In this document: in pieces, positions 4,744-29,208 of the stretch
Position numbering within the stretch: the first letter of the stretch is position 1
How the letters are laid out: every line of letters starts with the position of its first letter
Assembly: GCA_964393525.1 (NCBI GenBank)
Contig: CAYMTV010000001.1
Span: 1,545-65,544, forward strand
From: an uncultured Gammaproteobacteria bacterium
GTDB taxonomy: Bacteria; Patescibacteriota; Microgenomatia; Daviesbacterales; UBA10151
Reading direction: 5' to 3'
DNA length: 64,000 nucleotides
The notes under the pieces: model-generated
Databases searched by the model: none
Told to the model about the DNA's origin: nothing
Seen by the model: only the letters and a program-made list of their open reading frames with translations
Made by a program: the position numbers and the translations under genes

Positions 4744-5712
4744 ATGAAAATCAAAAAGGAAAAATTTCAAAAACTAATTCTTATAGTCTATCTTTTGAGC
4801 GCTTTTTTGCTTTCGACAGGCTTTTTAATTGCAACTTCTAAAGCCTCAAATATCATTGAAGGAAAAATTACTTTTTTAGGAAACCAAAAGCAGGATAAAG
4901 TCAAACCTATTATTTCAAATGTTGCAGGTGCTGAAAACGAAGAGGTGGTCAACATTGTAGATAAAAAATTACCACACCCCAAGATTAGTGCGAGAGCGGC
5001 TTTAGTTGAAGATTTTGAAAGCGGGACAATACTTTATCAAAAGAATATTTTTGACCCGCTCCCTCCTGCTTCAACAACAAAAATAATGACAGCGCTTATT
5101 GCCAGTGAACACTTTAAACCCGGGGATGTATTAACTGTTCCGTCGGAGGCATTGGTTGGCGGTTCCTCAATGGGTGCTGTGGCAGGGGAAAGGTTATCTT
5201 TTAGAAGTTTACTTTACGGAATGATGTTAAACTCGGGTAATGATGCGGCTTATACTATTGCTTGGAATTTCCCTGGTGGTGTCGGGGCATTCATAGATAG
5301 AATGAATCAAAAAGCATCCGAATTGGGACTTAAAAACACCCATTTTGAAAACCCGGCAGGTTTTGATAGTTCAAATCATTTTTCTTCAGCTTCCGATTTG
5401 GCCAAGCTTGCAAAAATTGTTGCAGAAGACTATCAGATGGCAAAAGTTGTTTCTACCAAGGAAACATCGGTTGCTTCATGGGATAAAACAAACCAGCATA
5501 TATTAAAAAATTTAAACAAACTCCTGGAAGAAGATGGGGTAGTGGGAATAAAAACCGGCTATACTGAAAACGCCAAGGAAAACTTAGTTGGTCTTATTGA
5601 GAGGGATGGACATAAAATACTGACAGTTATCTTAAACAGCGATGACAGATTTGGGGAAACCAAAACTTTGATTGACTGGGTTGAGCAAAATTACAGCTGG
5701 GTAAAAAATTAA
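4744..5712 (+). CDS. D-alanyl-D-alanine carboxypeptidase (S11, PBP5/6 family), membrane-anchored
   Basis: SASTTK (SxxK), LNSGND (SxN) and KTG motifs, with an N-terminal TM helix. Confidence 0.8.
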   Translation: MKIKKEKFQKLILIVYLLSAFLLSTGFLIATSKASNIIEGKITFLGNQKQDKVKPIISNVAGAENEEVVNIVDKKLPHPKISARAALVEDFESGTILYQKNIFDPLPPASTTKIMTALIASEHFKPGDVLTVPSEALVGGSSMGAVAGERLSFRSLLYGMMLNSGNDAAYTIAWNFPGGVGAFIDRMNQKASELGLKNTHFENPAGFDSSNHFSSASDLAKLAKIVAEDYQMAKVVSTKETSVASWDKTNQHILKNLNKLLEEDGVVGIKTGYTENAKENLVGLIERDGHKILTVILNSDDRFGETKTLIDWVEQNYSWVKN

Positions 5713-6758
5713 TTTGTGGCCTCTTCTTTGGCAAAATACTCATCCTGGATTGCAGGAACTAAAGCCACAAACCCGTCTCCCTCAAAAACATAAATAGGTT
5801 GCAGATATTTAGTGTATTTATCTGAGAGCAAGTAAGCCAGATAGATAGAAGACAGGTCAATTTTTCTGCCGGGCGGACTCACTACAACTACCCCTTTGCC
5901 TTCTTGCAGCTCATTAAACGCAGTTTCGGCATTTTTAATAGGGTAGGTAGCAAGATTCGTTTGATCAATTGACCAATAGGTGTAATTTAATTTTAAATAC
6001 TTGTTCCTTTCTTCAGTATATTTTGTCACTGTTGCTTTAATTAACCCTTGGGTAAATTCTTTAGTAATTATCGGGTAGCGGATTTCGTCGTCAACTAAAT
6101 CACTTTGCCAAAGGGTTACTTCTGCCTGATCACTTTCCTGTTGGGTTGCTCCATTATAGAAAACCTTGGACCCCCCTCCTCTAAGATCTTCCGGAAGTAA
6201 GCCCAGAGTGCCTAAGAAAGATTTAAATTCACTAACAATCTTTCCCTGATCGCCCACAATTTCATCCTGGAAGGTTGCACTTTCGGTAGAGATTGTTCTG
6301 GTAAACTCAAAGTTACCGGTATCCAAATCTACCCTCATCTCTCCGCCCAAATTATCAGTAAATCTGTAAAGAGTTGGGTTGATAATTTCGGGAACAGAGT
6401 CAAACTCCAGCTTTTGTGCCAAACCTTTTGCCCTATCTGATGAAAGAAGCGTAGTTCCAAGCTTTGATATAAAATAAACCTTCATCAGTGTTGGAGTATT
6501 TGACGGGAGGTTGCCGGTTTCAGTAACAAGCTCATATGTATAATCCGATGATGGAGATTGTCCCTGACCCAAATCAGGTCTTGGCAGGAGGTTGAATTTT
6601 GTATCGGCTTTTTCCTGAGGCGGTGGTATTTTAGAGCGCTGATAATTAATGTACCAGTTGAGTCCTATCCAGGCAGAACCCAGCAGCACAATTACAATTA
6701 AGCCAATAACGAACCCTTTTTTGGTAAGGGCGGCAGTTTGAGTTAGAGTTAGCGCCAT
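5709..6758 (-). CDS. Hypothetical membrane-anchored protein
   Basis: 349-aa ORF with one N-terminal TM helix and no recognisable motifs. Convergent with the dac gene. Confidence 0.5.
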   Translation of the reverse strand: MALTLTQTAALTKKGFVIGLIVIVLLGSAWIGLNWYINYQRSKIPPPQEKADTKFNLLPRPDLGQGQSPSSDYTYELVTETGNLPSNTPTLMKVYFISKLGTTLLSSDRAKGLAQKLEFDSVPEIINPTLYRFTDNLGGEMRVDLDTGNFEFTRTISTESATFQDEIVGDQGKIVSEFKSFLGTLGLLPEDLRGGGSKVFYNGATQQESDQAEVTLWQSDLVDDEIRYPIITKEFTQGLIKATVTKYTEERNKYLKLNYTYWSIDQTNLATYPIKNAETAFNELQEGKGVVVVSPPGRKIDLSSIYLAYLLSDKYTKYLQPIYVFEGDGFVALVPAIQDEYFAKEEATN

Positions 6759-6804: not shown

Positions 6805-8277
6805 TTGAGTATGAGTGTTCGGACAAGAATGGCACCATCACCAACCGGTAATCTTCATTTGGGAACTGCTTATGCAACATTGTGGCCATATATATTTGCC
6901 CGCAAAAATGAGCGAAGCTCTTCTTCGAATAATGGGGCATTTATCTTAAGAATTGAAGACACAGACAGAGAAAGATCAACCAAGGAATTTGAAGCAAATA
7001 TTATTGAGGGTCTAGGTTGGTTGGGTTTTTCTTGGGATGAGGGACCATTCCATCAGATGGATAGGTTAGACCTGTACAAAAAGCATGTTGATGAGCTGAT
7101 AGCTTCCAATCAGGCTTACTTTTGCTTTTGCACTAAAGAAGAGTTAGAGGAGGAAAAAAAGAAACAAGCAGAAGCGCACCTGCCGCAGACTTACTCTGGA
7201 AAGTGCCGAAGATTAACAAAAGCAGAAGTTGATCAAAAGAAAAAAGATGGAGTGCCGTATGTGATCCGTTTTAAACTTGCCGAAGAAAGGGGAGTAATAG
7301 AATATCAAGATTTAATCCATGGGAAAATCTCATTTGATTCAAAACTGATTGGTGATACCGTGATCATGCGTCAAAACGGGATTCCTTTATATAACTTCGC
7401 AGTAGTAGTTGATGATATTGATATGGGGATCACCCATGTTATCCGCGGCGATGATCATATCTCAAATACACCAAAACAGATTTTACTCTGGGAAGCATTT
7501 AAAAAGGAACTTCCAAAGTTTGGTCACTATCCGGTGCTACTCAATCAGGATAGATCAGGAAAACTTTCCAAAAGGACCGGATCAGTTTCACTGGATTGGT
7601 ATAAGCATGAAGGATATTTACCGGAAGCGGTTATAAATTATCTGGCCCTTTTAGGATGGACTCCGCCAAATAATAAAGAAATTTTGAACCTAGATCAGAT
7701 AATCGAGCTTTTTGATATTTCGGATATGAACAAAGCAGCAGCTGCCTGGAATGAGCAAAAACTTGATTGGATTAATGGGGAATATATTAGAAAGATGAGC
7801 GATGAAGAGTTAACAAAAAGATTACAAGAGTATTTGGTAGACCATCCGGCTCAAGAAAAAATAGCAATGGTTGTGCCGCTTATTAAAGAACGGATCAAGA
7901 AGCTTTCGGATTTTGTACCCTTGGCAAACTTTTTATTTCAGAAACCCGAATATGACAAACAAGTTTTTGATAAGGTTAAGATTGAAAGCGTGAAAAATGT
8001 CTTAAATAGGGTAGTGGAGGAGCTTCAGAAGATGGAAAAACCTTGGACCTCGGAGAATTTTGAGAATACATTTAAGAAACTGGCAGAAGAATTAAAAATT
8101 TCAAATTTGGATATGTTTCAATTAATCCGTTTAGCTGTCTCTGGACAACTTGTCAGCCCTCCCCTATTTGAATCTATCCAGATTTTGGGTGAAGAGGAAA
8201 CTTTAGAGAGAATTAAATATGTCATAGAAACTTATCCTAATTTCCCCTATCAAAAACCAGTAGCTGATCGATTTTAG
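6805..8277 (+). CDS. gltX: Glutamyl-tRNA synthetase (possibly non-discriminating)
   Basis: HLGT (HIGH) motif, KLSKR (KMSKS) motif, and a CxC...C zinc-binding segment. 490 aa, followed directly by tRNA-Gln. Confidence 0.9.
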   Translation: MSMSVRTRMAPSPTGNLHLGTAYATLWPYIFARKNERSSSSNNGAFILRIEDTDRERSTKEFEANIIEGLGWLGFSWDEGPFHQMDRLDLYKKHVDELIASNQAYFCFCTKEELEEEKKKQAEAHLPQTYSGKCRRLTKAEVDQKKKDGVPYVIRFKLAEERGVIEYQDLIHGKISFDSKLIGDTVIMRQNGIPLYNFAVVVDDIDMGITHVIRGDDHISNTPKQILLWEAFKKELPKFGHYPVLLNQDRSGKLSKRTGSVSLDWYKHEGYLPEAVINYLALLGWTPPNNKEILNLDQIIELFDISDMNKAAAAWNEQKLDWINGEYIRKMSDEELTKRLQEYLVDHPAQEKIAMVVPLIKERIKKLSDFVPLANFLFQKPEYDKQVFDKVKIESVKNVLNRVVEELQKMEKPWTSENFENTFKKLAEELKISNLDMFQLIRLAVSGQLVSPPLFESIQILGEEETLERIKYVIETYPNFPYQKPVADRF

Positions 8278-8596
8278 CAGCCATGATGAAATCATTTTCG
8301 TGAAGTCCTTTGATAAAGTGAGTGGCCAAAGTAATAGTAACTTTGTTATAAACAATTGTGATATTTGGATGGTGGCCTTCTTCTTCTGCAAGATCAGCAA
8401 CTTTATTTACAAAATCAATAGCCGCTCTAAAAGTTTTGAATTCAAATTTTTTCTTTATTTTTAAATTATCCTCTGTAACCCACCCCCCTACTTGTTTTAA
8501 CATTTTCTGTACTCCCCCCGGTTCCATAGGAGGAACCCATGTCTCACAAGGGATACATTTTTTAGAAGCAAGGTCAGACATAGTCTGATTATACAC
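8237..8596 (-). CDS. Pterin-4a-carbinolamine dehydratase (PCD/DCoH family)
   Basis: EEGHHP motif and ~100-aa core. Overlaps the gltX 3' end on the opposite strand. The true start is probably the internal MSDLASKK. Confidence 0.65.
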   Translation of the reverse strand: MYNQTMSDLASKKCIPCETWVPPMEPGGVQKMLKQVGGWVTEDNLKIKKKFEFKTFRAAIDFVNKVADLAEEEGHHPNITIVYNKVTITLATHFIKGLHENDFIMAAKIDQLLVFDRGN

Positions 8597-8625
8597 TTAT
8601 CTTGTGGTAAAATTTACAAGTTCAA

Positions 8626-8697
8626 TGCGGGATCGTCTAACGGCAGGACGATAGCCTCTGGAGCTATCTATCTTGGTTCGAATCCAAGTCCCGCAGC
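8626..8697 (+). tRNA. tRNA-Gln (anticodon CUG)
   Basis: Hand-folded cloverleaf. Acceptor TGCGGGA/TCCCGCA with U1-A72, D stem GTCT/GGAC, anticodon stem ATAGC/GCTAT, loop CUCUGGA, T arm CTTGG-TTCGAAT-CCAAG, discriminator G. No encoded CCA. Confidence 0.6.
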
Positions 8698-8708
8698 TTT
8701 GAAAATAA

Positions 8709-8725
8709 ACCACCTATAAAGGGTG
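8709..8725 (+). terminator. Hairpin CCACC-N6-GGGTGG downstream of tRNA-Gln
   Basis: Perfect 5-6 bp inverted repeat followed by an A/T-rich tract. Confidence 0.3.
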
Positions 8726-8814
8726 GTCAATTTTCAAATACGGGATATTTGGATTCTAACCCGCGATTTGCAAAAAAAGTTAGGATAGTTAAATTTCTAT
8801 TTTTACAACTAAAG

Positions 8815-8945
8815 CTTAAGTTTTACTGAAGGAAGCGGGTTCGGCCCTGAGCGAACCTGTGGTGAGCGTAGTCGTACTTCGAGTTCCCTCAGTATGACCC
8901 TGAGTGTTAATCGAATGGGTCGAACCAGTCGAAGGGGGTGTGTTA
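8815..8945. repeat. Structured repeat element, copy A (inverted homolog at 44470-44525)
   Basis: Contains the GGTTCG...CGAACC hairpin, a duplicated CCCTGAG motif, and TCGAATGGGTCGAACC. About 70% identical to the reverse complement of the lon-upstream segment. Confidence 0.5.
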
Positions 8946-8961
8946 TCCAAGTCCCGCAGTT
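8945..8961 (+). repeat. Direct repeat of the tRNA-Gln 3' end (att-like scar)
   Basis: ATCCAAGTCCCGCAG is identical to the last 15 nt of tRNA-Gln and lies 248 bp downstream of it. No T arm or acceptor partner precedes it. Confidence 0.5.
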
Positions 8962-9138
8962 AATTTGTAATATTTCAGCTACAAGCTTGTGTTAATGGCC
9001 CAAAGCTGGTAAAATTAGTTTACTTATTAATGCTAAGAATTTAAGATATAAAAAGCTAAAGCCTTCTGCTTTACTTCTTTTTCTTCCTAAAGTACTTTCA
9101 TTAAAGAATTTAAAAAAGAAAGGCGGTGAAAACTAAAA

Positions 9139-9495
9139 ATGACCAAATTATTTGTTGGGGGTATACCCTATTCACTAACAAATCAAAAGTTGGAAGAAAT
9201 GTTTGCAAAGTTTGGAACGGTAAGTTCAGCGCAGATCATAATGGATAAGTTTACTAACCAAAGCAAAGGGTTCGCTTTTGTAGAAATGCAAAATGACGAT
9301 GAAGCCCAAGCAGCTATCAAAGAACTTGATGGTTACGGTTTGGAAGGGCGCAAAATTGGCGTATCCGTTGCCAGACCCAGAGAAGATCATCAAGGCAATA
9401 GGCAAGGCTTTTCTTCGAATAATAGAAACAACTTTCGGCGTGATAACTTTAGAAAAGGAGGCAGTAGCTTCCTTAGAGGTAGTCACAGAAGATAA
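9139..9495 (+). CDS. RNA-binding protein, single RRM with Gly/Arg-rich tail
   Basis: RNP-2 LFVGGI and RNP-1 KGFAFVEM motifs, with a C-terminal RGG-like tail. Confidence 0.8.
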   Translation: MTKLFVGGIPYSLTNQKLEEMFAKFGTVSSAQIIMDKFTNQSKGFAFVEMQNDDEAQAAIKELDGYGLEGRKIGVSVARPREDHQGNRQGFSSNNRNNFRRDNFRKGGSSFLRGSHRR

Positions 9496-9512
9496 ACCAA
9501 GAAAGATAATTT

Positions 9513-9800
9513 TTGAAAATACCAATAAGATCTATTCGTCCTAATATTAGGTTGGCCAATCAAGAAAAAACCGAAGAGCGGGAAATTTGGCATAAACTTG
9601 TTGTAAAAATAATAAGCTGGAAGAGCGGTTTACTTGAAGGCGGCCTGATTAAGGCAACAGATAAAATTACCCCAAAAGAATGGAATACCTACCATAAAGG
9701 TAGAGTAAAAATTAGCTCTGATTTCGGCAAGGACAAGGTGAGGTCCAGTTTAAAAGAGATTAAGGCTTTTATTAAAAAACAGGGCGGGTTTGCGGAGTAA
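9513..9800 (+). CDS. Hypothetical small protein
   Basis: 95-aa basic ORF with no motif. Confidence 0.3.
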   Translation: MKIPIRSIRPNIRLANQEKTEEREIWHKLVVKIISWKSGLLEGGLIKATDKITPKEWNTYHKGRVKISSDFGKDKVRSSLKEIKAFIKKQGGFAE

Positions 9801-10614
9801 TTTTTGGACGGCTTACTTGAAATGGTTTGATATTATAGTAGGGATGGATTTAGAGCCATTTCATAGAAGCGTCTATCAGCTGATACTGACTATTGTTGCA
9901 GCAGTCAGCACAACTTTCACTTCTCCATCGGATCTACAAATCAACCTGCAAAATCCCGGGGTAATTACAGCATATAATATTCTAGAAGAAAGTCTCAATA
10001 TTGATGAATCAGAAAGCATTCAGCTGGACACTGAAGATAAGATTAATCAGGATACGAGTAAGGTAGAAAAGATAAAATTAGTGATTAAAGAGTCTGATTC
10101 GACACCCACTCCAACACCAAGCCCTATTCCATCACCGGTAAAAAAAGCTACTCCAATTCCTAAAGAAACCACCGAACCTAAACAAACGAATGATATTGCC
10201 CTAAATTCAGAAGCAAATAAAGAAACAAAAACTGGTATAGAGCTGGTTAATCAAAATTTATCCGGTTCTGAACTGCTTTTCCAAATGGCCAATCAACACC
10301 GTGCAAAACTTGGTTTAGGAGTTTTTGAAAAAGATGAGAAGATTTGTCAAATTGCCCAACAAAGAGCTCCTCAAGTCTATGGAGAGGTTTTTACGGCTGG
10401 CCCAATGCATAAAGGGTTTTATGCACTTAATTTACCTTATTGGGCAGCAGAAAATATTGCCTCTTATCAGACAATAGAAGAAAATTTTAATTTTTGGATT
10501 GCCGATTATATCCACAGGAAGGCAATAGAAGGGGATTATAAATACAGCTGCGTTGCCTGCTTTGGGAATTCCTGCTCCCAAATATTTACAAGTTACATAC
10601 CAAAGAAGAATTGA
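9790..10614 (+). CDS. Secreted protein with PT-rich linker and possible CAP/SCP-like C-terminal domain
   Basis: N-terminal hydrophobic segment, a TPTPTPSPIPSP linker, and C-terminal NQHRAKLG / AAENIA / CVAC segments that resemble CAP motifs. Confidence 0.35.
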   Translation: MRSNFWTAYLKWFDIIVGMDLEPFHRSVYQLILTIVAAVSTTFTSPSDLQINLQNPGVITAYNILEESLNIDESESIQLDTEDKINQDTSKVEKIKLVIKESDSTPTPTPSPIPSPVKKATPIPKETTEPKQTNDIALNSEANKETKTGIELVNQNLSGSELLFQMANQHRAKLGLGVFEKDEKICQIAQQRAPQVYGEVFTAGPMHKGFYALNLPYWAAENIASYQTIEENFNFWIADYIHRKAIEGDYKYSCVACFGNSCSQIFTSYIPKKN

Positions 10615-10647
10615 TCTTTAGAAATATATACATGCTATCATTAATAT

Positions 10648-11922
10648 TTGAAACATATGTTTAAATTTCTAATACTGATTGGCTTAGTCTTAATTTTAGT
10701 TTTTTCGGCTTTAAATCAAGAAAGTGATACAATAATTAAAAACACTACCCTAAAAGATTTAAATATATCTAAAACTGCCGTAGATTATTCGGAAGATTTT
10801 AAGACGCTTGGTTTTAGTGGACAAAAAAAGTTGGTAGAAGATTCTCAGGGCAATGTTTATATTGCCTACAGAAAAAAAGTAAATAGTTACTATGAAATTT
10901 TTGTCTCCAAACTTAGCAAAAATGCCGACAATAATTTTCAAACAATCTATTCTGAAAATGTTTCCAGGTTTAGTAATAAAGTAAACCAAAGGGTACCCTC
11001 AATCTCAATTGATTCCAAAGACAATATTTATCTAGTCTGGTATGGAACAGATTCGGCAAAAGAGGAGAATAATAGACAAATCAAATATTCTAGCTCTCAA
11101 GATGGAGGAAAAACCTGGTCTAAGCTTGTCAATGTTTCCTTTGTTGAGGGATTTAAAAAACAAAACCTTTGGCAGGAACACCCGGACATTTTAGTAGGAA
11201 AAAATGATAAACTTTTTGTCGTGTGGGAAGGAAAGGATAAAGAAAATAATAATCAACAAATCAAATTTGCAAAGTCTAAAGATGGCTCAAGTTGGACAAA
11301 TTGGAAGAATATTCAGCCGGGAGCAGGCTCCCAATCCAGACCTACTATCCTGCAAGATAAAGACGGATTAATCTATGTTTTTATGTATTCAAGAAAGGGC
11401 CAAAAAGAGCATCAAATTTGGTACTCAACCTCCAATGACGAAGGCGAAACTTGGAGCAAATGGGAAAATATTTCAAAGTCAAATAATGATTCAAGGCATT
11501 TAGCGGCAGTAGTTGATAATCAAAATGTAATTCATATTGTCTGGAGGGAGTATAACCCGGAAAATAAGAGGACCCAAATCAGATATTCACAACTAAACGG
11601 TAGACAGTGGTCAAGTTCCAAAATTATTTCCAAATCGGGTACTTATCAGTATTTTCCTCAAATAGGGTTAGATAAGAACAATAAGGTTTATGTAGTCTGG
11701 TGGGAAACATCAAAGAGATACGAATATCCGGAAGAAGACCCACAAGAAGGTAACCTCTACTTGAGCATATTGCAAGATCAAAATTTTTCACCAACGCAAC
11801 TTATTTCCACCAAAGCCTATTTTCCTAATATTATCCAGAAATCGGCTATCGATGGAAGCTATATAATTTACTCCACCAAGGGTAAAAACTTCTCTATAAA
11901 TTTTACAGAAATCAAACTTTAA
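10648..11922 (+). CDS. Secreted BNR/Asp-box repeat protein (sialidase-like beta-propeller)
   Basis: Signal peptide and repeated SxDxGxTW motifs (SSQDGGKTWS, SKDGSSWT, STSNDEGETWS). Confidence 0.7.
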   Translation: MKHMFKFLILIGLVLILVFSALNQESDTIIKNTTLKDLNISKTAVDYSEDFKTLGFSGQKKLVEDSQGNVYIAYRKKVNSYYEIFVSKLSKNADNNFQTIYSENVSRFSNKVNQRVPSISIDSKDNIYLVWYGTDSAKEENNRQIKYSSSQDGGKTWSKLVNVSFVEGFKKQNLWQEHPDILVGKNDKLFVVWEGKDKENNNQQIKFAKSKDGSSWTNWKNIQPGAGSQSRPTILQDKDGLIYVFMYSRKGQKEHQIWYSTSNDEGETWSKWENISKSNNDSRHLAAVVDNQNVIHIVWREYNPENKRTQIRYSQLNGRQWSSSKIISKSGTYQYFPQIGLDKNNKVYVVWWETSKRYEYPEEDPQEGNLYLSILQDQNFSPTQLISTKAYFPNIIQKSAIDGSYIIYSTKGKNFSINFTEIKL

Positions 11923-11930
11923 GCCCTCTG

Positions 11931-11959
11931 TTGACATTTTAAGTGTAACGTTGTAGAAT
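11931..11959 (+). promoter_or_regulatory. Sigma70-like promoter TTGACA-N17-TAGAAT
   Basis: Canonical -35/-10 hexamers with 17-bp spacing upstream of the EPS genes. A second TTGACA...TATAAT (12017-12034) ends 8 nt before the ATG. Confidence 0.45.
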
Positions 11960-12042
11960 ATCCTGTAATAATTACTACTAGCTATAAATCAGCTTTGTAG
12001 TAATATTTTTTTTGAGTTGACAATTACCTATAATAAAAATAT

Positions 12043-12960
12043 ATGGGGAAAAGTAAAATAAAATTATCAATCATCGGTTCCGGTATAGTAGGTCAGGCAA
12101 CGGGCAAGGGTTTTATCGAAAAAGGGTTTGATGTAACCTTTATTGATGTTAATCCAAGCATTATTGAAAAATTAAACAGCCAAGGTTGCAGGGCTTATCT
12201 CGCAAGCGATAGGGAAAATATTCCCTATACCGACATTTCCATATTCACAGTTCCTACCCCCACTATTGGTGACGAAATCGAGCTAAAGTTTCTAAAAGCA
12301 GCTGCTAAAGATCTGGGAAAAAGAATCGGGAAGATGAAAAGAGATCACTTAGGAGTAGTCAGAAGTACTGTTGGCCCCGGAAGCACAGAGATTATGCTTA
12401 AAATTTTAGAAAAATACTCAGGTAAGAAAGCCGGCAAAGACTTTGGGGTTTGTATGAATCCAGAGTATCTAAGAGAAGTATCAGCCTTGGAAGATTTTGC
12501 TAATCCCTGGATTGTAGTAATAGGAGAATTTGATAAAAGATCAGGAGATTTATTAGAAAAAGTTTATAAAAGATTTAAAGCTCCGATCCACAGAGTTTCT
12601 TTGAAAGAAGCTGAAATGCAAAAATATGTTCACAATTTATACAACGCCTATAAAATCACTTTCTTTAATGAAATGAGAAGGATTGCTCAGGCTTTAAAAA
12701 TTGATGCCGAGAATATGTTTGAGATGACTGTCAAAAGCTGCGAGGGGATCTGGAATCACAGTTATGGGACCCGTAACTTTGGACCATTCTCCGGAAGCTG
12801 TCTGCCAAAAGATACTCAGGCATTTCTAGCTTGGGCACAGAAAAAAGGTTATGAAGCGGACTTGCTTGAAACTACGATTGAGGTTAATAAAACTTTTATT
12901 TCAAGAAAAGTAGATACAACCAGAATCCTCCCAACACGCTACTCAGAATTACCACTTTAG
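12043..12960 (+). CDS. UDP-glucose/GDP-mannose 6-dehydrogenase family protein, C-terminally short
   Basis: GSGIVGQATG NAD-binding motif, NPEYLREVSALEDF segment, and catalytic Cys in SCLPKD. It is 305 aa against the usual ~400-440, so the C-terminal nucleotide-sugar domain appears absent. Confidence 0.7.
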   Translation: MGKSKIKLSIIGSGIVGQATGKGFIEKGFDVTFIDVNPSIIEKLNSQGCRAYLASDRENIPYTDISIFTVPTPTIGDEIELKFLKAAAKDLGKRIGKMKRDHLGVVRSTVGPGSTEIMLKILEKYSGKKAGKDFGVCMNPEYLREVSALEDFANPWIVVIGEFDKRSGDLLEKVYKRFKAPIHRVSLKEAEMQKYVHNLYNAYKITFFNEMRRIAQALKIDAENMFEMTVKSCEGIWNHSYGTRNFGPFSGSCLPKDTQAFLAWAQKKGYEADLLETTIEVNKTFISRKVDTTRILPTRYSELPL

Positions 12961-12963
12961 GTT

Positions 12964-15885
12964 TTGGTAATAAATATTATGGATAATTTACTAGCCCAAA
13001 CACAAAATTACCTATCAATCATTGCTTTTTATCTTCCAATTGGAATCATTGGAGTTTGGCGTTGGCTGGTATGGCTTTTTAAAAAAGCTGTTGGATTGTA
13101 CTACAAGCCAAAAAGGAATAACTATAAAGCATCTGTTTCTATAATTACTCCAGTTTATAATGAAGATCCAGCTATTTTAAAAAAAGCACTTTTTTCCTGG
13201 AAGGAAAATGATCCTTTTGAAATCATTGCAGTCATAGATTATACCGATAAACAATCGATTGGAATTTTTAAAAAATTCAGCAAAACTTTTTCTCGGGCAA
13301 AACTGATTATTACTAAAAAGCCTGGAAAAAGATCAGCTCTGGCTGATGGTATAAAAAAGGCAAAAGGAGAAATTGTTGCATTAGTTGATTCGGATACTTT
13401 ATGGACAGAAACAGTTATTATAAACTGTCTCCCGCCCTTTAAAGACCCTAAAGTTGCCGGAGCAACAACCAGGCAAAATGTTTTAAATACTAACTCTTTA
13501 GCCCAGAAATTATTTGATATCCAATTGGATCTTAGGTATTTTGACGAATTTCCGTTTTTAGCAGCAGCTGGTGATGCACTGGTCTGTTTGTCTGGTAGAA
13601 CCGCTTTTTATCGCAGAAAAGTAGTACTTCCTATGTGTGAAGATTTAGTCAATGAGACATTTTTGGGTAAACCTGTCATCTCAGGTGATGATAAAAGACT
13701 TACCTACCTTGTTTTGGCAGCCGGATGGAAAGTAGCTTATCAAAAAAATGCCAGAGTGTTTACGCCGGGAATGGTTGATCTAAAAAGCTACTTAAAACAA
13801 CGCTTAAGATGGACTAGAAATAGCTTAAGGGCTGATATAAAAGCGATAATTCAAGGTTGGCCCTTTAGACACCCAGGCTTAGTATTTTTCCAAATAGATA
13901 AGATTGTCCAATCATTTGCCATAGTCTTAAGTCCAATCTATTTTTTTGTATCACTATATTTAGGGCTTTACTTAGGCGCATTCTTAATCTTTGCTTGGTG
14001 GTTTATCTCAAGGGCAATTAAAATCTATCCTCATATAAAAAGAAGGCCACAAGATATATCCCTTTTGCCATTTTATGTTCTATACACCTTTATCTCAGCC
14101 GTTTTAAAGATCTACGCCCTATTTACCTTAAACACCCAGAGCTGGATCACCAGATGGGATCAAAGCAGGCTTCCTCAATTTAAATTTATCCAATATCTTC
14201 CAGCCTATGCCATGACAGTCATTTTACTTGCTTTTTTGACTTTTGGAGTTTATTCCCAAAAACAGGGAATTATGCTTTTAGAACCAGTGGAATTAAAACA
14301 AACTCCAGTTCAGGTAGAGAACTTAATATTAAAACCAGATGTGGAAGTGGCCCAAGCTAAGGAAGATCTCGATTCAACATATGTTAACGAAAAAGGTACA
14401 TTGGTTCAAAAATATGTAGTGAAGCCAGGCGATACACTCTCGCAAATTGCCTATAACTTTAACACTGACACCGAGGATGTTTTAGAGGCTAATATAAATA
14501 TTTTACCTAACTGGAATGTAATTGAACCGGGGACAATTTTAAGCATCCCGTATCAAAATTTCAGTCTTGAATCTCCTCGCACTAAATCTTTTACAATTAA
14601 GAATTTGCCAAAACTGGATATAACTTATGATAAGGAAGATAATACAATTCATCTCTTTGGAAGAGGTAACCCAATCACTCTTAAGACCTTACAAGAAAAG
14701 CTCGGTAATGATCGGATTGAAGAGATTGCTCCTAAGCAATGGCTATTAAAATCTAATCTCAAACTCGAAAATGGTGTTTCCTTAACTTTAAATAAAAATG
14801 AGGTTGAATGGCTTAAATTAAAAAGCGAACCAGGTAGTTTTGTTACTTTAAGAACTTGGGGTGGAAATATTCATATTGATGGTGTAAAGGTCTCTTCTTG
14901 GGATACAACCAAAAATGATTATGATAAAAACGAGAAAGATGGTAGAAGCTTTATCATGGTCAAATATAACTCAAGGATGGATATAATAAACTCAGATTTG
15001 GGTTACCTGGGCTTTTATCCCCGTTCTGCATCTGATGGCTCATCTTATGGAGTTTCCTGGAAGTTGCCCGATGGGACATATAGGAAATACTTCGTTACAG
15101 GTGAGGTTTTAAACTCAAAGTTTCATCATAACTATTTTGGCGCTTATACTTATGGTGCAACCGGGATGGTCTGGAGAGGAAATGATTTTTATAACAACAT
15201 TCAATATGGATTAGATCCTCATGATGATTCAAATGGATTTTTGGTTGAGAATAATACATCACATGATAATGGAAACCATGGGATAATTTTTTCTAAAAGA
15301 TGTGTTAATAACATCATCAGAAACAATATCTCCTATAATAATAGATTGCATGGGATAATGTTGGATAGAAATTCTGATAATAATATCGTGGAGAATAACT
15401 CTGTTTTTGGAAATAAAGACGGTATTGCCCTTTATGATTCAAGTAATAATATCGTTAGAAATAATAAGATTGAGAGGAATAAAAGAGGTCTGAGGGCGAA
15501 TACTAAGTCTCAAAATAATACTGTTTTAAATAACAACTTTAACAGTAATTCTCAGTATGGAGTATACCTTTATGGTCAGGCCAACAGCACTATAATCTCT
15601 AAAAATAGCTTTAATCAAAACAATGTGGCACTGTATGTTAAGACAAATACCAATCAAATAAATGATAATAATATTACCAATAATAAAACTGGTGTTTATT
15701 TTGTGGATAGGGCATCTGATAATAAGGTTACTAAAAACGTTATTACAGATAATAAAAAATATGGTATTTTTACCAAGACCTTTAAGGGAACTAAAAATAT
15801 TGTAGGAGATAATGTGCTTTCTAATAATGGCCAAGATATCTTTACAGCCTCTTTAAAAGATCCAGCACTTTCCCAAGCAAGATGA
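12964..15885 (+). CDS. Processive GT2 polysaccharide synthase fused to LysM and a C-terminal parallel beta-helix (PbH1) domain
   Basis: GT2 motifs VDSDT, GDD and QRLRWTRN (QxxRW), followed by multiple TM helices. A LysM domain (YVVKPGDTLSQIAYNF) lies near residue 485. At least 10 NNxIxxN beta-helix repeats make up the last ~280 aa. Confidence 0.8.
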   Translation: MVINIMDNLLAQTQNYLSIIAFYLPIGIIGVWRWLVWLFKKAVGLYYKPKRNNYKASVSIITPVYNEDPAILKKALFSWKENDPFEIIAVIDYTDKQSIGIFKKFSKTFSRAKLIITKKPGKRSALADGIKKAKGEIVALVDSDTLWTETVIINCLPPFKDPKVAGATTRQNVLNTNSLAQKLFDIQLDLRYFDEFPFLAAAGDALVCLSGRTAFYRRKVVLPMCEDLVNETFLGKPVISGDDKRLTYLVLAAGWKVAYQKNARVFTPGMVDLKSYLKQRLRWTRNSLRADIKAIIQGWPFRHPGLVFFQIDKIVQSFAIVLSPIYFFVSLYLGLYLGAFLIFAWWFISRAIKIYPHIKRRPQDISLLPFYVLYTFISAVLKIYALFTLNTQSWITRWDQSRLPQFKFIQYLPAYAMTVILLAFLTFGVYSQKQGIMLLEPVELKQTPVQVENLILKPDVEVAQAKEDLDSTYVNEKGTLVQKYVVKPGDTLSQIAYNFNTDTEDVLEANINILPNWNVIEPGTILSIPYQNFSLESPRTKSFTIKNLPKLDITYDKEDNTIHLFGRGNPITLKTLQEKLGNDRIEEIAPKQWLLKSNLKLENGVSLTLNKNEVEWLKLKSEPGSFVTLRTWGGNIHIDGVKVSSWDTTKNDYDKNEKDGRSFIMVKYNSRMDIINSDLGYLGFYPRSASDGSSYGVSWKLPDGTYRKYFVTGEVLNSKFHHNYFGAYTYGATGMVWRGNDFYNNIQYGLDPHDDSNGFLVENNTSHDNGNHGIIFSKRCVNNIIRNNISYNNRLHGIMLDRNSDNNIVENNSVFGNKDGIALYDSSNNIVRNNKIERNKRGLRANTKSQNNTVLNNNFNSNSQYGVYLYGQANSTIISKNSFNQNNVALYVKTNTNQINDNNITNNKTGVYFVDRASDNKVTKNVITDNKKYGIFTKTFKGTKNIVGDNVLSNNGQDIFTASLKDPALSQAR

Positions 15886-15911
15886 AGCAAGCTTGCTTCT
15901 TTACCTTTCAA

Positions 15912-17093
15912 TCAATCTTTCATTTTTTTTAATGGTAACTCAACCGTAAAAGTTGAGCCCTGTCCCTCTTTACTGTCAACGGAAATTTTTCCGCCATGGG
16001 CTTTGATAACCTGATTTGTAATGTAAAGACCAACACCCAGCCCTTTATAGTGATTATCGTGGACTGCTCTTTCAAAAAGTTCAAAGATCTTAGCTTTTTC
16101 CCTGGAAGGTATTCCAATGCCATGATCCTTTACTATAATCTTTCCCGTTGCATTTTGTTTAAAGACCCTCACCTCGATAGGTTTTCCTTGCCCATACTTT
16201 AGTGCATTGGAGATTAAGTTCATCAAAACCTGCTCGATTCTTAAGGGATCAAACTTCCCCTTAACCACGCCGTTAGTATCGATCCTAATCTCGATATTTT
16301 CCTTTTCCGACTTTTCGGCAAAGCGCTTAATTACGTCTTTTGTTAACTGGCTTAAATCTGATTCCTCAAGATCCAGACTCATTCTGCCTGTTGTGATTAA
16401 TGAAACATTTAAAAGGTCGTTGATCATTCTAGAAAGACGTTGGGTTTGTTGTTCAGCACTCTCCAGCATATCCAATAGGTTTTGAACGGAAAAGGAGGCT
16501 AATGAAACATTTCTGATATTATGCAAAGCAGTTTGAAGTTTAAGTAGAGTAGTGGTAAGAGGAGTTTTTAGCTCATGAGAGGCAATTGATAAGAATTCAT
16601 CCCTGACCTTAATTTCTTTTTTGGCTTTCAAGTTCTCTCCCTCCAGGTTTTTTATGCGATTTTGGGATGCTTTCTCAAGTTTATTAAACTCCGATAGTAA
16701 ACTCAGTTGTTTTAACCTGGCTGTAATGTAGCTTATGGTAACCCCCAGTAAAATAAAAATACTTATTTCTAAAACTGAAAAAAGATTTAATGGAAACTTA
16801 AGGGGATAAAATAGAAATATTATTGAAACAGTGCCGAAAATAATAGTAATTAGGGATGTTTTTAAATCACCGGTCAAAGCAGTTAAAAAAATTGCTAAGG
16901 AAAAGAGTAAATATGAGACTGTTTTTCCGTTACTTGGGTCTAAAGTCAGGCTTATTTGAAGTGATAATAAGCAGAAAAGAACCACAGCCCCATACCTGAA
17001 TGTATAGCTTTGCAGGTTTTCTTTAGGAAACTTTGATTGCCTTATCAAGTCCCGATACAAACCTTTTACTAATGCAAATTTCATAGTTTGCAA
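15912..17093 (-). CDS. Sensor histidine kinase (multi-TM sensor, HisKA + HATPase)
   Basis: H-box ASHELKTPLT, N-box LISNALKYG, G-boxes DHGIGIP and GLGVGLYI, and about 5 N-terminal TM helices. Confidence 0.85.
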   Translation of the reverse strand: MQTMKFALVKGLYRDLIRQSKFPKENLQSYTFRYGAVVLFCLLSLQISLTLDPSNGKTVSYLLFSLAIFLTALTGDLKTSLITIIFGTVSIIFLFYPLKFPLNLFSVLEISIFILLGVTISYITARLKQLSLLSEFNKLEKASQNRIKNLEGENLKAKKEIKVRDEFLSIASHELKTPLTTTLLKLQTALHNIRNVSLASFSVQNLLDMLESAEQQTQRLSRMINDLLNVSLITTGRMSLDLEESDLSQLTKDVIKRFAEKSEKENIEIRIDTNGVVKGKFDPLRIEQVLMNLISNALKYGQGKPIEVRVFKQNATGKIIVKDHGIGIPSREKAKIFELFERAVHDNHYKGLGVGLYITNQVIKAHGGKISVDSKEGQGSTFTVELPLKKMKD

Positions 17094-17155
17094 AGTATAT
17101 TAATAATTTACTCTAAGATCAAATCAGGTTAATGCAGTAAAAGTGGATGGAAGTA

Positions 17156-17716
17156 TTAATCTTGTTTTCCGTGGATTAGTGCATCAATAACATCGTGAGG
17201 CAAAGTTGCTGCATTAAGTAAGGCTTTTCTGACAATATTTCCGGCTTCGGAACCAATCTCATCGGCTGCTCTCAAAGATCCAATGACCGCATCTTTTGCA
17301 AGTTCCGCGGCATCTCCTCCAATATCATTGGCGGCCTTAATCGCTCCTTCTACCGCGGAAACCGCTGCTCCACCAAGGTCCTGACCTACTGAGTTTGCTC
17401 CCTTTATCGCTCCAGAGGCAGAATCAACAGTTGCAGTGCCGATATCCTGACCGACGTCTTTGGCCCCTTCAATTGCACCACTAACAAGCCCCACGATTGC
17501 ATCTGTGACCGATACTCCGGTTTCCGAAGCTGCCTTGACCCCGTCTGAAGCAACGCCTGTAACAAAATCCAAAGAAGTGGTAGCGACATTCCCCCCTGCT
17601 TGAATTGTATTTACAACATTATCTTTAACTACATCCCTGGTGGTATTTACAACATCTCCGGCTCCGGAAACGATTGAAGAAAGGGAGTTTTTCAGATCAT
17701 CTACGATATTACCCAT
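17156..17716 (-). CDS. Repetitive Ala/Gly/Val-rich protein with 11-residue periodicity
   Basis: Tandem 11-mers such as VSGAIEGAKDV / GQDIGTATVDS / ASGAIKGANSV / GQDLGGAAVSA, similar in composition to LEA or synuclein-type amphipathic repeats. Confidence 0.5.
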   Translation of the reverse strand: MGNIVDDLKNSLSSIVSGAGDVVNTTRDVVKDNVVNTIQAGGNVATTSLDFVTGVASDGVKAASETGVSVTDAIVGLVSGAIEGAKDVGQDIGTATVDSASGAIKGANSVGQDLGGAAVSAVEGAIKAANDIGGDAAELAKDAVIGSLRAADEIGSEAGNIVRKALLNAATLPHDVIDALIHGKQD

Positions 17717-17808
17717 TGGTTAAATAAAAACATATTTTTTAGTATCTGTCAACCTCCTCAATTTTCATGGTTTACTTTTCTAATTAAAAATATGATACTT
17801 CTTTCGCA

Positions 17809-19017
17809 ATGATCAGCGTTTCAAAAAGATTAACCGATCTTCCGGTATCATCCGTCCGTAAGCTCTCTCCTTATGCCGCTGAGGCTAAAAATAAAGGTGT
17901 GAAAATTTACCACTTAAACATCGGTGATCCGGATATTAAAACCCCTAAAGTTATGATCGATGTTTTGCGAAACTGGAGTATTAATCCTATCCGCTATGCT
18001 AATTCATCCGGAGAGTCCGAGTTTATTCAGGCCCTAAGAAGCTACTACAACGGTCTAGGTTTTACTCAAATTAAAGAATCCGATATTTTGGCAACCGTTG
18101 GAGGTTCAGAGGCGGTAGTGATGGCAATGTATGCAACCTGCGGACCTGGGGATGAAATCTTAGTTTTTGAGCCTTTTTATTCAAATTATGCCACCTGTGC
18201 TAAATTCTGCGATATTAAGCTTGTTCCGGTTGAAACTACAATAAAAAACGGTTTTCACCTGCCCGACAGAAAAGTAATTGAAGAAAAAATTACCAGGAAA
18301 GCGAAGGCTATTTTAGTCTGTTCGCCAAATAATCCAACTGGCGCTATTTATACGAGGAAAGAATATAAAATACTTGTAGAAATTGCCAAGGAAAAAAATC
18401 TGTTTCTAATATCCGATGAAGTTTACAGAGAATATATCTTTGGAAATATTAAGCACACCTCGGTTCTGGAATTTTTAAATGAAATTCCGGAGCAGATAAT
18501 TCTTTTGGACAGCCTTTCCAAAAGGTACAGTTTATGCGGGGCGAGGCTTGGAATTTTAATGAGTTTAAATCAGGAAGTAATAAAGGGTACACTTAAGCTT
18601 GCCCAGGGCAGGTTATCTGGCGGGATTATCGACCAGATGGTTGGCGCTAAACTGACCCGCGTCCCCAAAAGTTATATTGAGAAAGTAAGACAAGAATATG
18701 AGAAAAGACGGGATGTCTTATATGAAGGTTTGTCAAAAATTAAAGGAGTTTTTCTTACAAAACCGGAAGGAGCTTTTTATACTATGGTAAGCCTACCGGT
18801 TGAGAATGCGGAGGATTTTTCAATATATCTTTTAAAAGATTTTAGAGATAAAAATGAAACAGTCATGCTTGCGCCGGGGGAGGGATTTTACGGCACAAAA
18901 AATCAGGGCTTAAATCAGGTCAGAATTGCCTATGTATTAAACACTCGTGATTTAAAAAGGTGCATTGAAATAATTGATAAAGCACTGCAAAAATACAATA
19001 TTGAAAAGTTCCCTTAA
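17809..19017 (+). CDS. Class I/II PLP-dependent aminotransferase (aspartate/aromatic type)
   Basis: SLSKRYSLCGARLG (PLP lysine), 402 aa, fold type I. Confidence 0.85.
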   Translation: MISVSKRLTDLPVSSVRKLSPYAAEAKNKGVKIYHLNIGDPDIKTPKVMIDVLRNWSINPIRYANSSGESEFIQALRSYYNGLGFTQIKESDILATVGGSEAVVMAMYATCGPGDEILVFEPFYSNYATCAKFCDIKLVPVETTIKNGFHLPDRKVIEEKITRKAKAILVCSPNNPTGAIYTRKEYKILVEIAKEKNLFLISDEVYREYIFGNIKHTSVLEFLNEIPEQIILLDSLSKRYSLCGARLGILMSLNQEVIKGTLKLAQGRLSGGIIDQMVGAKLTRVPKSYIEKVRQEYEKRRDVLYEGLSKIKGVFLTKPEGAFYTMVSLPVENAEDFSIYLLKDFRDKNETVMLAPGEGFYGTKNQGLNQVRIAYVLNTRDLKRCIEIIDKALQKYNIEKFP

Positions 19018-25733: not shown

Positions 25734-26105
25734 TTGGAAAAAAATATGAAAATAGATCAGATTTTAGTTATTATTTTTGGGATTTTAGGGATTGGATTTG
25801 TTTACTGGTTTTTCCTGATGAGGAAAGAAAAGACAGTTGAGGCTTCGGATTCAATCGATATTACCGTTGAAGGAGGCTATAAGCCGGAAGTAATTAAAGT
25901 CCAAAATAACATAACTACAAAATTAAATTTTATTCGCAAAGACCCTTCAACCTGCCTAGAAGAGGTTGTACTGAGTGATTTTAAAATCAAAAAATACCTG
26001 CCGTTAAATCAAAAAACCACCATAGAAATTACTCCAAAAAAAGTAGGCGAGTTCCCTTTTTCCTGCGGGATGAATATGTTCCATGGGAAGCTAATTGTTG
26101 AGTGA
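25734..26105 (+). CDS. Membrane-anchored cupredoxin-like copper-binding protein
   Basis: N-terminal TM helix. The C-terminal KLNFIRKD...[14 protein letters not shown] is paralogous to the C-terminus of the 29209 ORF, with conserved Cys/Met/His. Confidence 0.45.
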
Positions 26106-28336: not shown

Positions 28337-28358
28337 CTTAACCATTAATATTAAACTG

Positions 28359-29135: not shown

Positions 29136-29208
29136 AAAAAACATTTTTAAAAGATAGAAGTTTTTGCTGGACTTTTCGGCACTTCTGACTATTTGATCAA
29201 TTTTAAGG

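Follow-up and report, generated by a model that had tools for sequence, protein, structure and literature searches.

Organisation of the locus

The 64,000-nucleotide stretch of DNA analysed here (the window; contig CAYMTV010000001.1 of assembly GCA_964393525.1) contains three consecutive forward-strand genes, encoding a beta-propeller protein, a short sugar 6-dehydrogenase and a 973-residue fusion of a family 2 glycosyltransferase (GT2), a LysM domain and a beta-helix; the dehydrogenase and the fusion protein may well form a minimal pathway for an alginate-like polyuronate. The three open reading frames (ORFs) are present as an earlier note on this DNA had described them:

10648-11922, + strand: BNR_2 protein, 424 aa, a seven-bladed beta-propeller, membrane-anchored or secreted
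12043-12960, + strand: short 6-dehydrogenase of the AlgD/UDP-glucose dehydrogenase (UGDH) family, 305 aa, NAD-binding and central domains only
12964-15885, + strand: fusion of GT2 synthase, transmembrane (TM) channel, LysM and AlgG-like beta-helix, 973 aa, TTG start

The TTG start codon of the fusion gene directly follows the stop codon of the dehydrogenase gene, and the public gene call for the fusion protein is 968 aa long, consistent with an ATG at position 12979. For all three proteins, the closest named homologues come from Candidatus Daviesbacteria of the Microgenomates group. In the databases such proteins are labelled "right-handed parallel beta-helix repeat-containing protein", "glycosyltransferase", "hyaluronan synthase" and "UDP-glucose/GDP-mannose dehydrogenase family protein".

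Domain architecture and topology of the fusion protein

The union of a GT2 domain (with DxD, GDD and QRLRW motifs), a LysM domain and a beta-helix in one 973-aa chain, as the earlier note had read it, was borne out by a Pfam scan and by a check of the motifs at the nucleotide level. Pfam places Glyco_tranf_2_3 at residues 58-286 (E 1.4e-28), with GT2 families spanning 58-348, LysM at residues 484-529 (E 5.6e-10), and Beta_helix/NosD over the C-terminal 400 residues (E 1e-31 and 1e-25). An AlphaFold2 (AF2) model built from 40 homologues has a mean predicted local distance difference test score (pLDDT) of 87, and its layout comprises an N-terminal TM helix, a GT-A domain, a helical membrane region (residues 304-435), a LysM fold and a beta-helix (residues 552-964). 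When this model was submitted to Foldseek, AlgG and hyaluronan synthase (HAS) came out on top, ahead of cellulose and chitin synthases. The features of the synthase and LysM parts are as follows:

13012-13080, + strand: N-terminal TM helix, residues 17-39 by hydropathy (AF2 helix 2-44)
13135-13854, + strand: cytoplasmic GT-A (family 2) catalytic domain (Pfam, NCBIfam; HAS 7sp7, E 8.5e-17)
13387-13395, + strand: DSD motif, residues 142-144, verified at the nucleotide level
13684-13698, + strand: GDDKR motif, residues 241-245, verified likewise
13798-13812, + strand: QRLRW motif, residues 279-283, verified likewise
13873-14268, + strand: membrane channel region, helices 304-332, 336-353 and 362-387 and last TM helix 404-435 (AF2 secondary structure)
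14143-14157, + strand: WITRW gating-loop motif, residues 394-398, aligned to HAS WGTR
14407-14550, + strand: LysM domain, residues 482-529 (Pfam; AF2 beta-alpha-alpha-beta fold, pLDDT about 90)

By sequence and predicted fold, the GT2 part belongs to the HAS/NodC class. The NodC model of NCBIfam matches fusion residues 51-397, and the GT2 part alone aligns with positions 43-394 of the 395 in that model at 118 bits. In the PDB search the N-terminal part matched Chlorella-virus and Xenopus hyaluronan synthases (E about 1e-16), and Foldseek aligned the model with HAS structures at E 1e-17 to 1e-14 over about 480-500 columns. The features that define processive membrane GT2 enzymes were all found, namely a GT-A domain with DxD, G(D/E)D and QxxRW, and a TM channel with a WGTR-type gating loop. 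Asp142-Ser-Asp144, Gly241, Asp243, Lys244, Gln279, Arg282, Trp283, Trp394, Thr396, Arg397 and Trp398 are invariant in the 40 homologues, and the motif residues are present in 70-73 of the 73 copies from related loci. The WITR of the fusion protein aligns on the WGTR of Chlorella-virus HAS, a motif that lies in the cytosolic gating loop of the HAS structures; the titles of the matched PDB entries include "gating loop inserted state". No Alg8 model appeared among the NCBIfam matches of the GT2 part, even at E up to 10, and no Alg8 structure among the PDB sequence or Foldseek matches of the fusion protein. Alg8, too, has a 'DDK' catalytic motif and a periplasmic C-terminus, a tentative lead.

The charge distribution bears on the topology. 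The loop after the first TM helix (residues 40-57) holds six Lys/Arg and no acidic residue (+6), the loop at residues 354-361 holds three Lys/Arg (+3), and the linker after the last helix (residues 436-481) holds four basic and nine acidic residues (-5). Given the positive-inside rule and a cytosolic gating loop, helix 404-435 should lead the chain outward, so that the LysM and beta-helix domains should lie outside the membrane, where alone both types of domain would make sense. In the PDB-search alignment the fusion protein has a single helix beyond the gating loop, whereas HAS runs on for about 100 residues. The LysM domain is presumed to be an extracytoplasmic anchor on peptidoglycan or on a glycan containing N-acetylglucosamine (GlcNAc). 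Since the window also encodes peptidoglycan DD-carboxypeptidases and an L,D-transpeptidase, a target for LysM exists in the host.

Beta-helix domain and its active site

The earlier note had proposed a beta-helix of at least 10 turns of the kind found in C5-epimerases, and the domain can now be described more closely as AlgG-like. The AF2 model shows about 11 regular three-strand rungs in residues 714-964 and about 4-5 before them, about 15 in total, with pLDDT mostly above 90 over residues 552-964; this is a genuine beta-helix and not the low-complexity Asn-rich sequence that the note had named as the finding that would overturn its proposal. Three stretches are of interest:

14617-15855, + strand: right-handed parallel beta-helix, residues 552-964 (AlgG homology, AF2)
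15205-15225, + strand: epimerase motif YGLDPHD with Tyr748, Asp751, His753 and Asp754 (HMMER alignment to AlgG VYGIDPHD)
15277-15300, + strand: HGIIFSKR with Lys778 and Arg779, aligned to AlgG HGIIISRE

The NCBIfam AlgG model NF038177 matches residues 570-868 (model positions 122-419 of 519; E 4.4e-41, 141.1 bits). The PDB search with the C-terminal part returned Pseudomonas syringae AlgG (4nk6, E 3.1e-34), then AlgE4 and AlgE6, and the top Foldseek match is again 4nk6 (E 1e-19, TM-score 0.67 normalised to the target), with AlgE4 (2pyg) at E 7e-9. Identity to AlgG is about 22% in the structural alignment. Two hallmarks of the AlgG/AlgE superfamily, the beta-helix fold and the DPHD motif with its preceding Tyr, are found in the fusion protein.

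It has been reported that in AlgG the His of DPHD abstracts H-5, Tyr314 positions the re-protonating water on the opposite face, and an Arg neutralises the carboxylate (PMC4444821, citing Wolfram et al. 2014). Judging from the alignments, each of these roles has a conserved counterpart in the fusion protein, with Lys778/Arg779 at the Arg position. AlgG Arg345 aligns to Lys778, with Arg779 next to it; both are invariant, and sequence cannot tell which of them neutralises the carboxylate. In an alignment of 40 homologues gathered by a word-based search, and hence not selected on motifs, Tyr748, Gly749, Asp751, His753, Asp754, Asp755, His772, Gly773, Ser777, Lys778 and Arg779 are all invariant. 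Among the copies from related loci YGxDPHD is kept in 69 of 73, a count that is partly so by construction because the motif was one of two patterns used to retrieve the relatives.

Some copies have lost the motif. In L073 the fused beta-helix (8001-10760) carries HGLNIHNN in place of DPHD, and an adjacent standalone beta-helix (10848-13034) has an intact YGxDPHD; in L074 (8001-10886; standalone 5356-6756, - strand) and L081 (6957-9326; standalone 9399-11246) the fused domain likewise lacks DPHD and a neighbouring standalone beta-helix has YGxDPHD. This sequence pattern suggests that the fused domain can be retained as a guide or scaffold without catalytic activity. It has been reported that the D324A variant of Pseudomonas AlgG no longer epimerises yet still protects the nascent chain (PMC4436075), and by analogy the pattern fits the separable catalytic and scaffold roles of that protein.

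Short dehydrogenase

The dehydrogenase matches PF03721 (E 3e-30) and PF00984 (E 1.5e-19) and nothing else in Pfam; PF03720, the C-terminal nucleotide-sugar-binding domain, has no match, in agreement with the earlier note. It passes TIGR03026 (205.6 bits against a cut-off of 189.8), with an alignment that covers positions 2-303 of the 413 in this NDP-sugar dehydrogenase model. In the PDB, GDP-mannose dehydrogenase AlgD (1mfz) is the best match (E 1.9e-44, 155.3 bits), and ordinary bacterial UGDHs score at most 97 bits. The catalytic motif is located as follows:

12793-12813, + strand: GSCLPKD with nucleophile Cys253, Lys256 and Asp257, aligned to AlgD GSCLPKD

The same truncation recurs in relatives, a check that the earlier note had proposed. 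Sixty-two short orthologues adjoin a fusion gene on the same strand, typically at -38 to +100 nt, and stop cleanly where the third domain would begin; GxGxxG, Thr109, Glu141, Lys194, Asn198, Cys253, Lys256 and Asp257 are at least 97% conserved among them. The top 120 homologues are all two-domain proteins of 260-341 aa. The missing domain was sought as a separate gene, by motif regular expression and by tblastn with a canonical C-terminal domain as query, in the window and in 1.27 Mb of related loci, and none was found in the window or beside any short orthologue. The same searches did recover two canonical 445-aa UGDHs in Moranbacteria loci (L053 and L064), which shows that the test works. 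As these loci carry a full-length UGDH as well, the short form is not just a degraded version of the organism's sole UGDH. By sequence, the truncation is a conserved trait of the family and not damage, and the short dehydrogenase is presumably an active enzyme.

The two canonical UGDH genes (L053 9844-11178, - strand; L064 8752-10086, - strand) occur together with the short form, within about 5 kb of the module. They adjoin a GT4 glycosyltransferase gene, joined in L053 by an LPG_synthase_TM gene, and this group, on the strand opposite to the module, looks like a separate pathway unrelated to it.

Conserved module and partner genes

In the module analysis, all ORFs of 73 loci, with about 8 kb on each side of the fusion gene, were clustered without preselection. 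The recurrent members are as follows:

Fusion protein: 73 of 73 loci
Short dehydrogenase: 66 of 73 loci
Membrane fn3 protein: 28 of 73 loci
PL7 lyase: 25 of 73 loci
Secreted beta-helix protein of about 392 aa (c392): 23 of 73 loci
BNR propeller of the window type: 19 of 73 loci
Sortase: 12 of 73 loci

At least one of PL7, BNR and c392 occurs in nearly every locus with enough flanking DNA, and all three carry N-terminal signal or anchor sequences. The earlier note had put the BNR protein before the dehydrogenase, and its position is correct; its appearance in 19 loci marks it as a conserved member of the module and not a bystander. It is a candidate polyuronate-acting lyase, hydrolase or binder, and its sequence search against the PDB gave weak sialidase matches only. 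In the window itself, tblastn and Pfam scans of about 45 ORFs found no PL7 lyase, no AlgA-type gene and no second dehydrogenase.

The PL7 partners (PF08787) are closest to the polyguluronate lyase AlyPG (1uai, E 6.6e-60), and 25 of the 26 PL7 proteins carry RxELR together with QIH. It has been reported that QIH is tied to polyG/polyMG specificity, with exceptions noted (PMC8618178). Because guluronate arises by C5-epimerisation and the PL7 partners look G-specific, the fused domain is argued to be an epimerase. In one Parcubacteria metagenome-assembled genome (MAG; locus L045), a gene for an AlgA-type bifunctional phosphomannose isomerase/GDP-mannose pyrophosphorylase (NTP_transferase plus MannoseP_isomer; 15768-17156, - strand) lies beside the module, between PL7 genes at 14653-15591 (- strand) and 17220-18062 (- strand). 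The polyG-type lyases and the AlgA-type gene tip the choice to an alginate-like product over hyaluronan. The parallel with the alginate (AlgD/Alg8/AlgG) and hyaluronan (HasB/HasA) systems drawn in the earlier note is thus supported and sharpened toward alginate.

Two further members deserve description. The fn3 protein, of about 271 aa (L001 7192-8007 and 27 other loci; not in the window), combines a single fn3 domain with a signal peptide and a C-terminal region that is hydrophobic; its gene lies immediately upstream of the fusion gene, often overlapping it, and the protein could be a co-polymerase or scaffold subunit. The c392 protein (L033 7123-8301 and 22 other loci) is a secreted right-handed beta-helix (Pfam Beta_helix, E 6e-7) found mostly in loci without PL7. 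Its sequence search of the PDB gave no meaningful match and no close solved relative, and it is a candidate alternative depolymerase.

Family size and distribution

More than 100 full-length homologues of about 960-970 aa, 51-76% identical and with the same architecture, are found in independent assemblies, and almost all of the best 120 matches to the fusion protein are 940-1035 aa long with an identical Pfam architecture. A scan of one genome per species, with two retrieval patterns of which YGxDPHD was one, found 228 relatives in reference genomes, mostly in Patescibacteria, also known as the candidate phyla radiation (CPR), plus Chloroflexota. The best 80 of these 228 come from Microgenomates (Davies-, Levy-, Ames-, Roizman-, Curtiss- and Woesebacteria), WWE3 and several Parcubacteria lineages. 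Full-length copies of 41-44% identity occur in Chloroflexota (Caldilineaceae), and several genomes carry a second copy, often in tandem with the first. A search with only the beta-helix domain as query found 504 cluster representatives at E<=1e-30, including standalone proteins of 430-700 aa as well as proteins of fusion length. In the window, a 978-aa ORF at 60482-63418 is similar in size to the fusion protein; it was considered as a second copy and proved to be SecA.

Several bulk-binned MAGs that carry the fusion gene (L006, L007, L010, L016, L017 and others) are titled 'uncultured Gammaproteobacteria bacterium' or 'Bdellovibrionales'. As their sequences are 54-76% identical to the Daviesbacteria copies, these labels are probably placeholders or wrong.

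Proposed pathway and alternative explanations

Taken together, it seems reasonably probable that the fusion protein and the dehydrogenase make an alginate-like polyuronate by a minimal pathway suited to a single membrane (monoderm type). The short dehydrogenase would act in the cytoplasm, oxidising C6 of an activated hexose, most likely GDP-mannose, by means of NAD+ and Cys253. By homology, the GT2 domain would polymerise the resulting uronate and push the chain through its own membrane channel, in the manner of hyaluronan, cellulose and chitin synthases. The extra C-terminal TM helix would set the rest of the polypeptide outside, where LysM would hold it at the peptidoglycan and the beta-helix would take the emerging chain and flip some residues at C5, from mannuronate to guluronate, using Tyr748, His753 and Lys778/Arg779. 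Secreted partners would then shorten the polymer or set it free, a task performed by AlgL in Pseudomonas; this part may fall to the BNR protein in the window and to a polyG-type PL7 lyase and/or another beta-helix protein in relatives. In this scheme the covalent fusion would substitute for the Alg8-AlgG contact and for the scaffold of Alg44, AlgK, AlgX and AlgE in the periplasm and outer membrane of Gram-negative producers.

Several observations weigh against this reading. The beta-helix, at 141.1 bits, does not reach the AlgG equivalog cut-off of 700 bits and is a homologue, not an equivalog; the GT2 part misses the NodC (TIGR04242) cut-off of 550 bits with its 118, and scores 53 bits on PgaC against a cut-off of 422. 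By sequence, the GT2 domain is most similar to users of UDP-GlcNAc and UDP-glucuronate (HAS, NodC) and is not demonstrably an Alg8. For the dehydrogenase, an archaeal (Pyrobaculum) UGDH, 3vtf, nearly ties with AlgD (153.8 against 155.3 bits), and the absent nucleotide-binding domain leaves the substrate uncertain. The AlgA-type gene occurs in only 1 of about 73 loci, and the window has neither it nor PL7. Mannuronate as the sugar is what we infer, and epimerase and lyase mechanisms use the same catalytic residues. The description of the protein as a synthase, modifier and anchor in one chain, given in the earlier note, holds for the window protein and does not extend to the whole family: the LysM profile matches 58 of the 73 full-length fusions, while in 15 the domain is weak or missing, as it is in the Moranbacteria-type and Chloroflexota copies. 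The anchor is a lineage feature and the universal core is GT2-TM-beta-helix.

The same architecture could make another polymer. In this alternative, UDP-sugars would be the precursors of a glucuronate (GlcA) chain, either glucuronan or a hyaluronan/heparosan-like GlcA-GlcNAc polymer; the beta-helix would turn GlcA into L-iduronate or modify the chain in some other way, and LysM would bind the GlcNAc-containing product in place of peptidoglycan. The kinship of the GT2 domain with HAS and NodC is in its favour, as are the tie of the dehydrogenase with the archaeal UGDH, its best NCBIfam equivalog match (AglM), and the canonical UGDH genes near the module in L053 and L064, although those genes look like part of a separate pathway. 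LysM domains bind GlcNAc glycans, and the PL7 family of CAZy also holds glucuronan lyases, but the PL7 partners of the module are nearest to a polyguluronate lyase and carry QIH, and the AlgA-type enzyme of L045 belongs to GDP-mannose metabolism. In addition, every known beta-helix epimerase of the AlgG/AlgE type acts on mannuronan (PMC4444821). This alternative is considered rather unlikely.

It is more improbable still that the beta-helix acts mainly as a lyase or depolymerase, or as a non-catalytic guide that sets chain length or release, and not as an epimerase. Carboxylate neutralisation and H-5 abstraction are common to epimerases and lyases (PMC4444821), AlgE7 performs both reactions with one site (PMC4444821, PMC8824271), AlgG activity lowers the molecular mass of alginate (PMC4436075), and some family members keep the domain without DPHD. 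However, Tyr748 on the proton-donor side, the counterpart of AlgG Tyr314, is invariant; a fused lyase would be redundant because the lyase candidates PL7, BNR and c392 accompany the fusion in most loci; the G-specific look of the PL7 partners implies that G residues are made; and the fusions that have lost DPHD are adjoined by a standalone copy that has it. The earlier note had asked for a check that the long ORF is not two genes joined in assembly. Such a chimera, and with it a dehydrogenase reduced to a truncated pseudogene, is refuted by the more than 100 full-length homologues from independent assemblies and the 228 relatives in reference genomes, by the confident single-chain AF2 model, and by the 62 short dehydrogenases, which keep the catalytic set, end cleanly at a domain boundary and belong to a large two-domain family.

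A stronger form of the alginate-like reading is tentative and, in our estimate, doubtful. It holds that two core genes suffice for single-membrane CPR/Patescibacteria and Chloroflexota to make true alginate, by a pathway overlooked until now in which one polypeptide polymerises, exports, wall-anchors and epimerises, and the dehydrogenase, having shed its nucleotide-binding domain, works in a new way. If true, no other alginate pathway would be known beyond Proteobacteria and brown algae. For example, it might be docked on the synthase with the GT domain holding the nucleotide (substrate channelling), or it might oxidise a sugar that is not nucleotide-bound.

Comparison with known systems

The module resembles the alginate system of Pseudomonas in its AlgD-like 6-dehydrogenase, its processive membrane GT2, its AlgG-homologous DPHD beta-helix predicted outside the cytoplasmic membrane, its accompanying lyase and, in one relative, an AlgA-type enzyme. 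An Alg8-AlgG interaction has been reported in Pseudomonas (PMC4436075), and the coupling of polymerase and epimerase, non-covalent there between separate proteins, is covalent in the single polypeptide of the fusion. The systems differ in size, with 12-13 genes in Pseudomonas against 2-4 in the module; the 13 Pseudomonas proteins include Alg44, AlgK, AlgE and AlgX and span the periplasm and outer membrane (PMC3815931, PMC4436075). Of the counterparts of Alg44/PilZ (c-di-GMP), AlgK/AlgE export and acetylation, none was seen in the module loci inspected: PilZ/Alg44 is missing from the Pfam tables of L001, L004 and L005 and from the recurrent neighbours of the 73 loci (about 8 kb per side), and AlgK, AlgE, AlgX and AlgI/J/F from the window ORFs and the same neighbours. 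This makes sense if the hosts, monoderm CPR and Chloroflexota, have one membrane. A single-membrane envelope is characteristic of CPR bacteria and Chloroflexota. For Patescibacteria, the title of PMC12102498 points in the same direction. Further differences are that the lyase of Pseudomonas is AlgL of PL5, whereas the module has PL7, a beta-propeller or a beta-helix; that the module dehydrogenase lacks the C-terminal domain; and that the module GT2 is HAS/NodC-like by all comparisons made, with NCBIfam models and PDB structures.

Class I HAS (Chlorella-virus HAS, vertebrate HAS1) is the best sequence and fold match for fusion residues of about 50-435 and shares the DxD, GDD(K/R), QxxRW and W-x-T-R gating-loop motifs and a self-formed export channel, while the streptococcal HasA/HasB system likewise pairs a synthase gene with a sugar 6-dehydrogenase gene. 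Class I HAS continues past the gating loop, whereas the fusion protein has one TM helix there, which should place its C-terminus outside, and adds LysM and epimerase domains; the partner lyases of the module point to a guluronate-containing polymer, not hyaluronan.

With the periplasmic AlgG and secreted AlgE-type epimerases, the fusion protein shares the right-handed beta-helix, YG-x-DPHD with its His base and Tyr, and, with AlgG, a basic residue at the Arg345 position and probably action at the polymer level. It differs from AlgG in its low identity and in having Lys778-Arg779 in place of a single Arg, from both in the tethering of the beta-helix to the synthase by a TM helix and LysM, and from the AlgE type in having no Ca-binding R-modules. 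The short dehydrogenase has the N-terminal Rossmann and central helical domains of the UGDH/AlgD family and its catalytic Thr, Glu, Lys, Asn, Cys and Asp; the nucleotide-binding, Rossmann-like C-terminal domain of that family is absent from the whole short subfamily and is not encoded nearby.

Other genes of the window

The window has a G+C content of about 34-45%, and its other genes are mainly of the housekeeping kind typical of a small CPR genome, including aminoacyl-tRNA synthetases, shikimate pathway and pentose-phosphate enzymes, SecA, Lon and ribonucleotide reductase. Lysyl-tRNA synthetase of class I (PF01921), less common in bacteria than the other type, is present together with a class II Asp/Asn/Lys-type synthetase (54259-55995, + strand, and 3360-4724, + strand). 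An unrelated beta-helix protein of 362 aa (37019-38107, + strand; Pfam Beta_helix, E 2.7e-8) is encoded between an L,D-transpeptidase (36267-37007, - strand) and a DD-carboxypeptidase (38107-39036); it was considered as a member of the c392 family and rejected, having no BLAST match to any ORF of the related loci, c392 included.

Just upstream of the BNR gene, positions 9790-10614 (+ strand) encode a 274-aa membrane-anchored protein with a Pro/Thr-rich linker and no Pfam match, which is not among the recurrent neighbours of the module, and the product of 9139-9495 (+ strand) looks by eye like an RRM-type RNA-binding protein with an Arg/Gly/Asn-rich tail. Downstream, a 186-aa Gly/Ala/Val/Asp-rich protein with a loose 'G..D.G....V' repeat and no Pfam match (17156-17716, - strand) is flanked by a DUF4118 histidine kinase (15912-17093, - strand) and an ORF at 17809-19017. 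Copper-handling genes are found at 26102-30276 (a P-type ATPase with an HMA domain, a DsbA-like thioredoxin and a DsbD_2-cupredoxin fusion) and at 47009-47785 (a CopC-plastocyanin fusion protein).

Implications

The individual parts all come from known families, and the novelty lies in their arrangement, with synthase, anchor and epimerase joined in a single chain, in the loss of a domain from the dehydrogenase and in the range of hosts. The literature covered, which does not take in most subscription journals, yielded no account of the fusion, of the short dehydrogenase or of alginate being made by CPR bacteria or Chloroflexota. Production of alginate-type polymers has, to our knowledge, been established to date in Pseudomonas/Azotobacter and brown algae only. 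If the proposed pathway is correct, it would extend the producers of alginate-type polymers to the vast and largely uncultivated CPR radiation and to Chloroflexota, with relatives of the fusion protein in 228 species-level reference genomes; no smaller synthase-dependent system for making a modified exopolysaccharide would be known. The fusion would then give direct genetic support for the coupling of polymerase and epimerase, which in Pseudomonas rests on interaction studies (PMC4436075), and a single gene for both activities would be attractive for the production of tailored alginates in Gram-positive hosts. The dehydrogenase poses an enzymological puzzle, as a large family of 6-dehydrogenases keeps its catalytic residues without the domain thought to be needed for binding nucleotide sugars.

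It has been reported that the organisms and proteins responsible for the 'alginate-like' polymers of wastewater granules remain unknown (PMC4585762), and the proposed pathway, if true, might help to identify the producers; in its stronger, true-alginate form it could explain part of the 'alginate-like exopolymers' found in sludge granules and groundwater biofilms. For episymbiotic CPR cells, a wall-anchored, acidic, gel-forming capsule of this kind could matter for attachment to the host.

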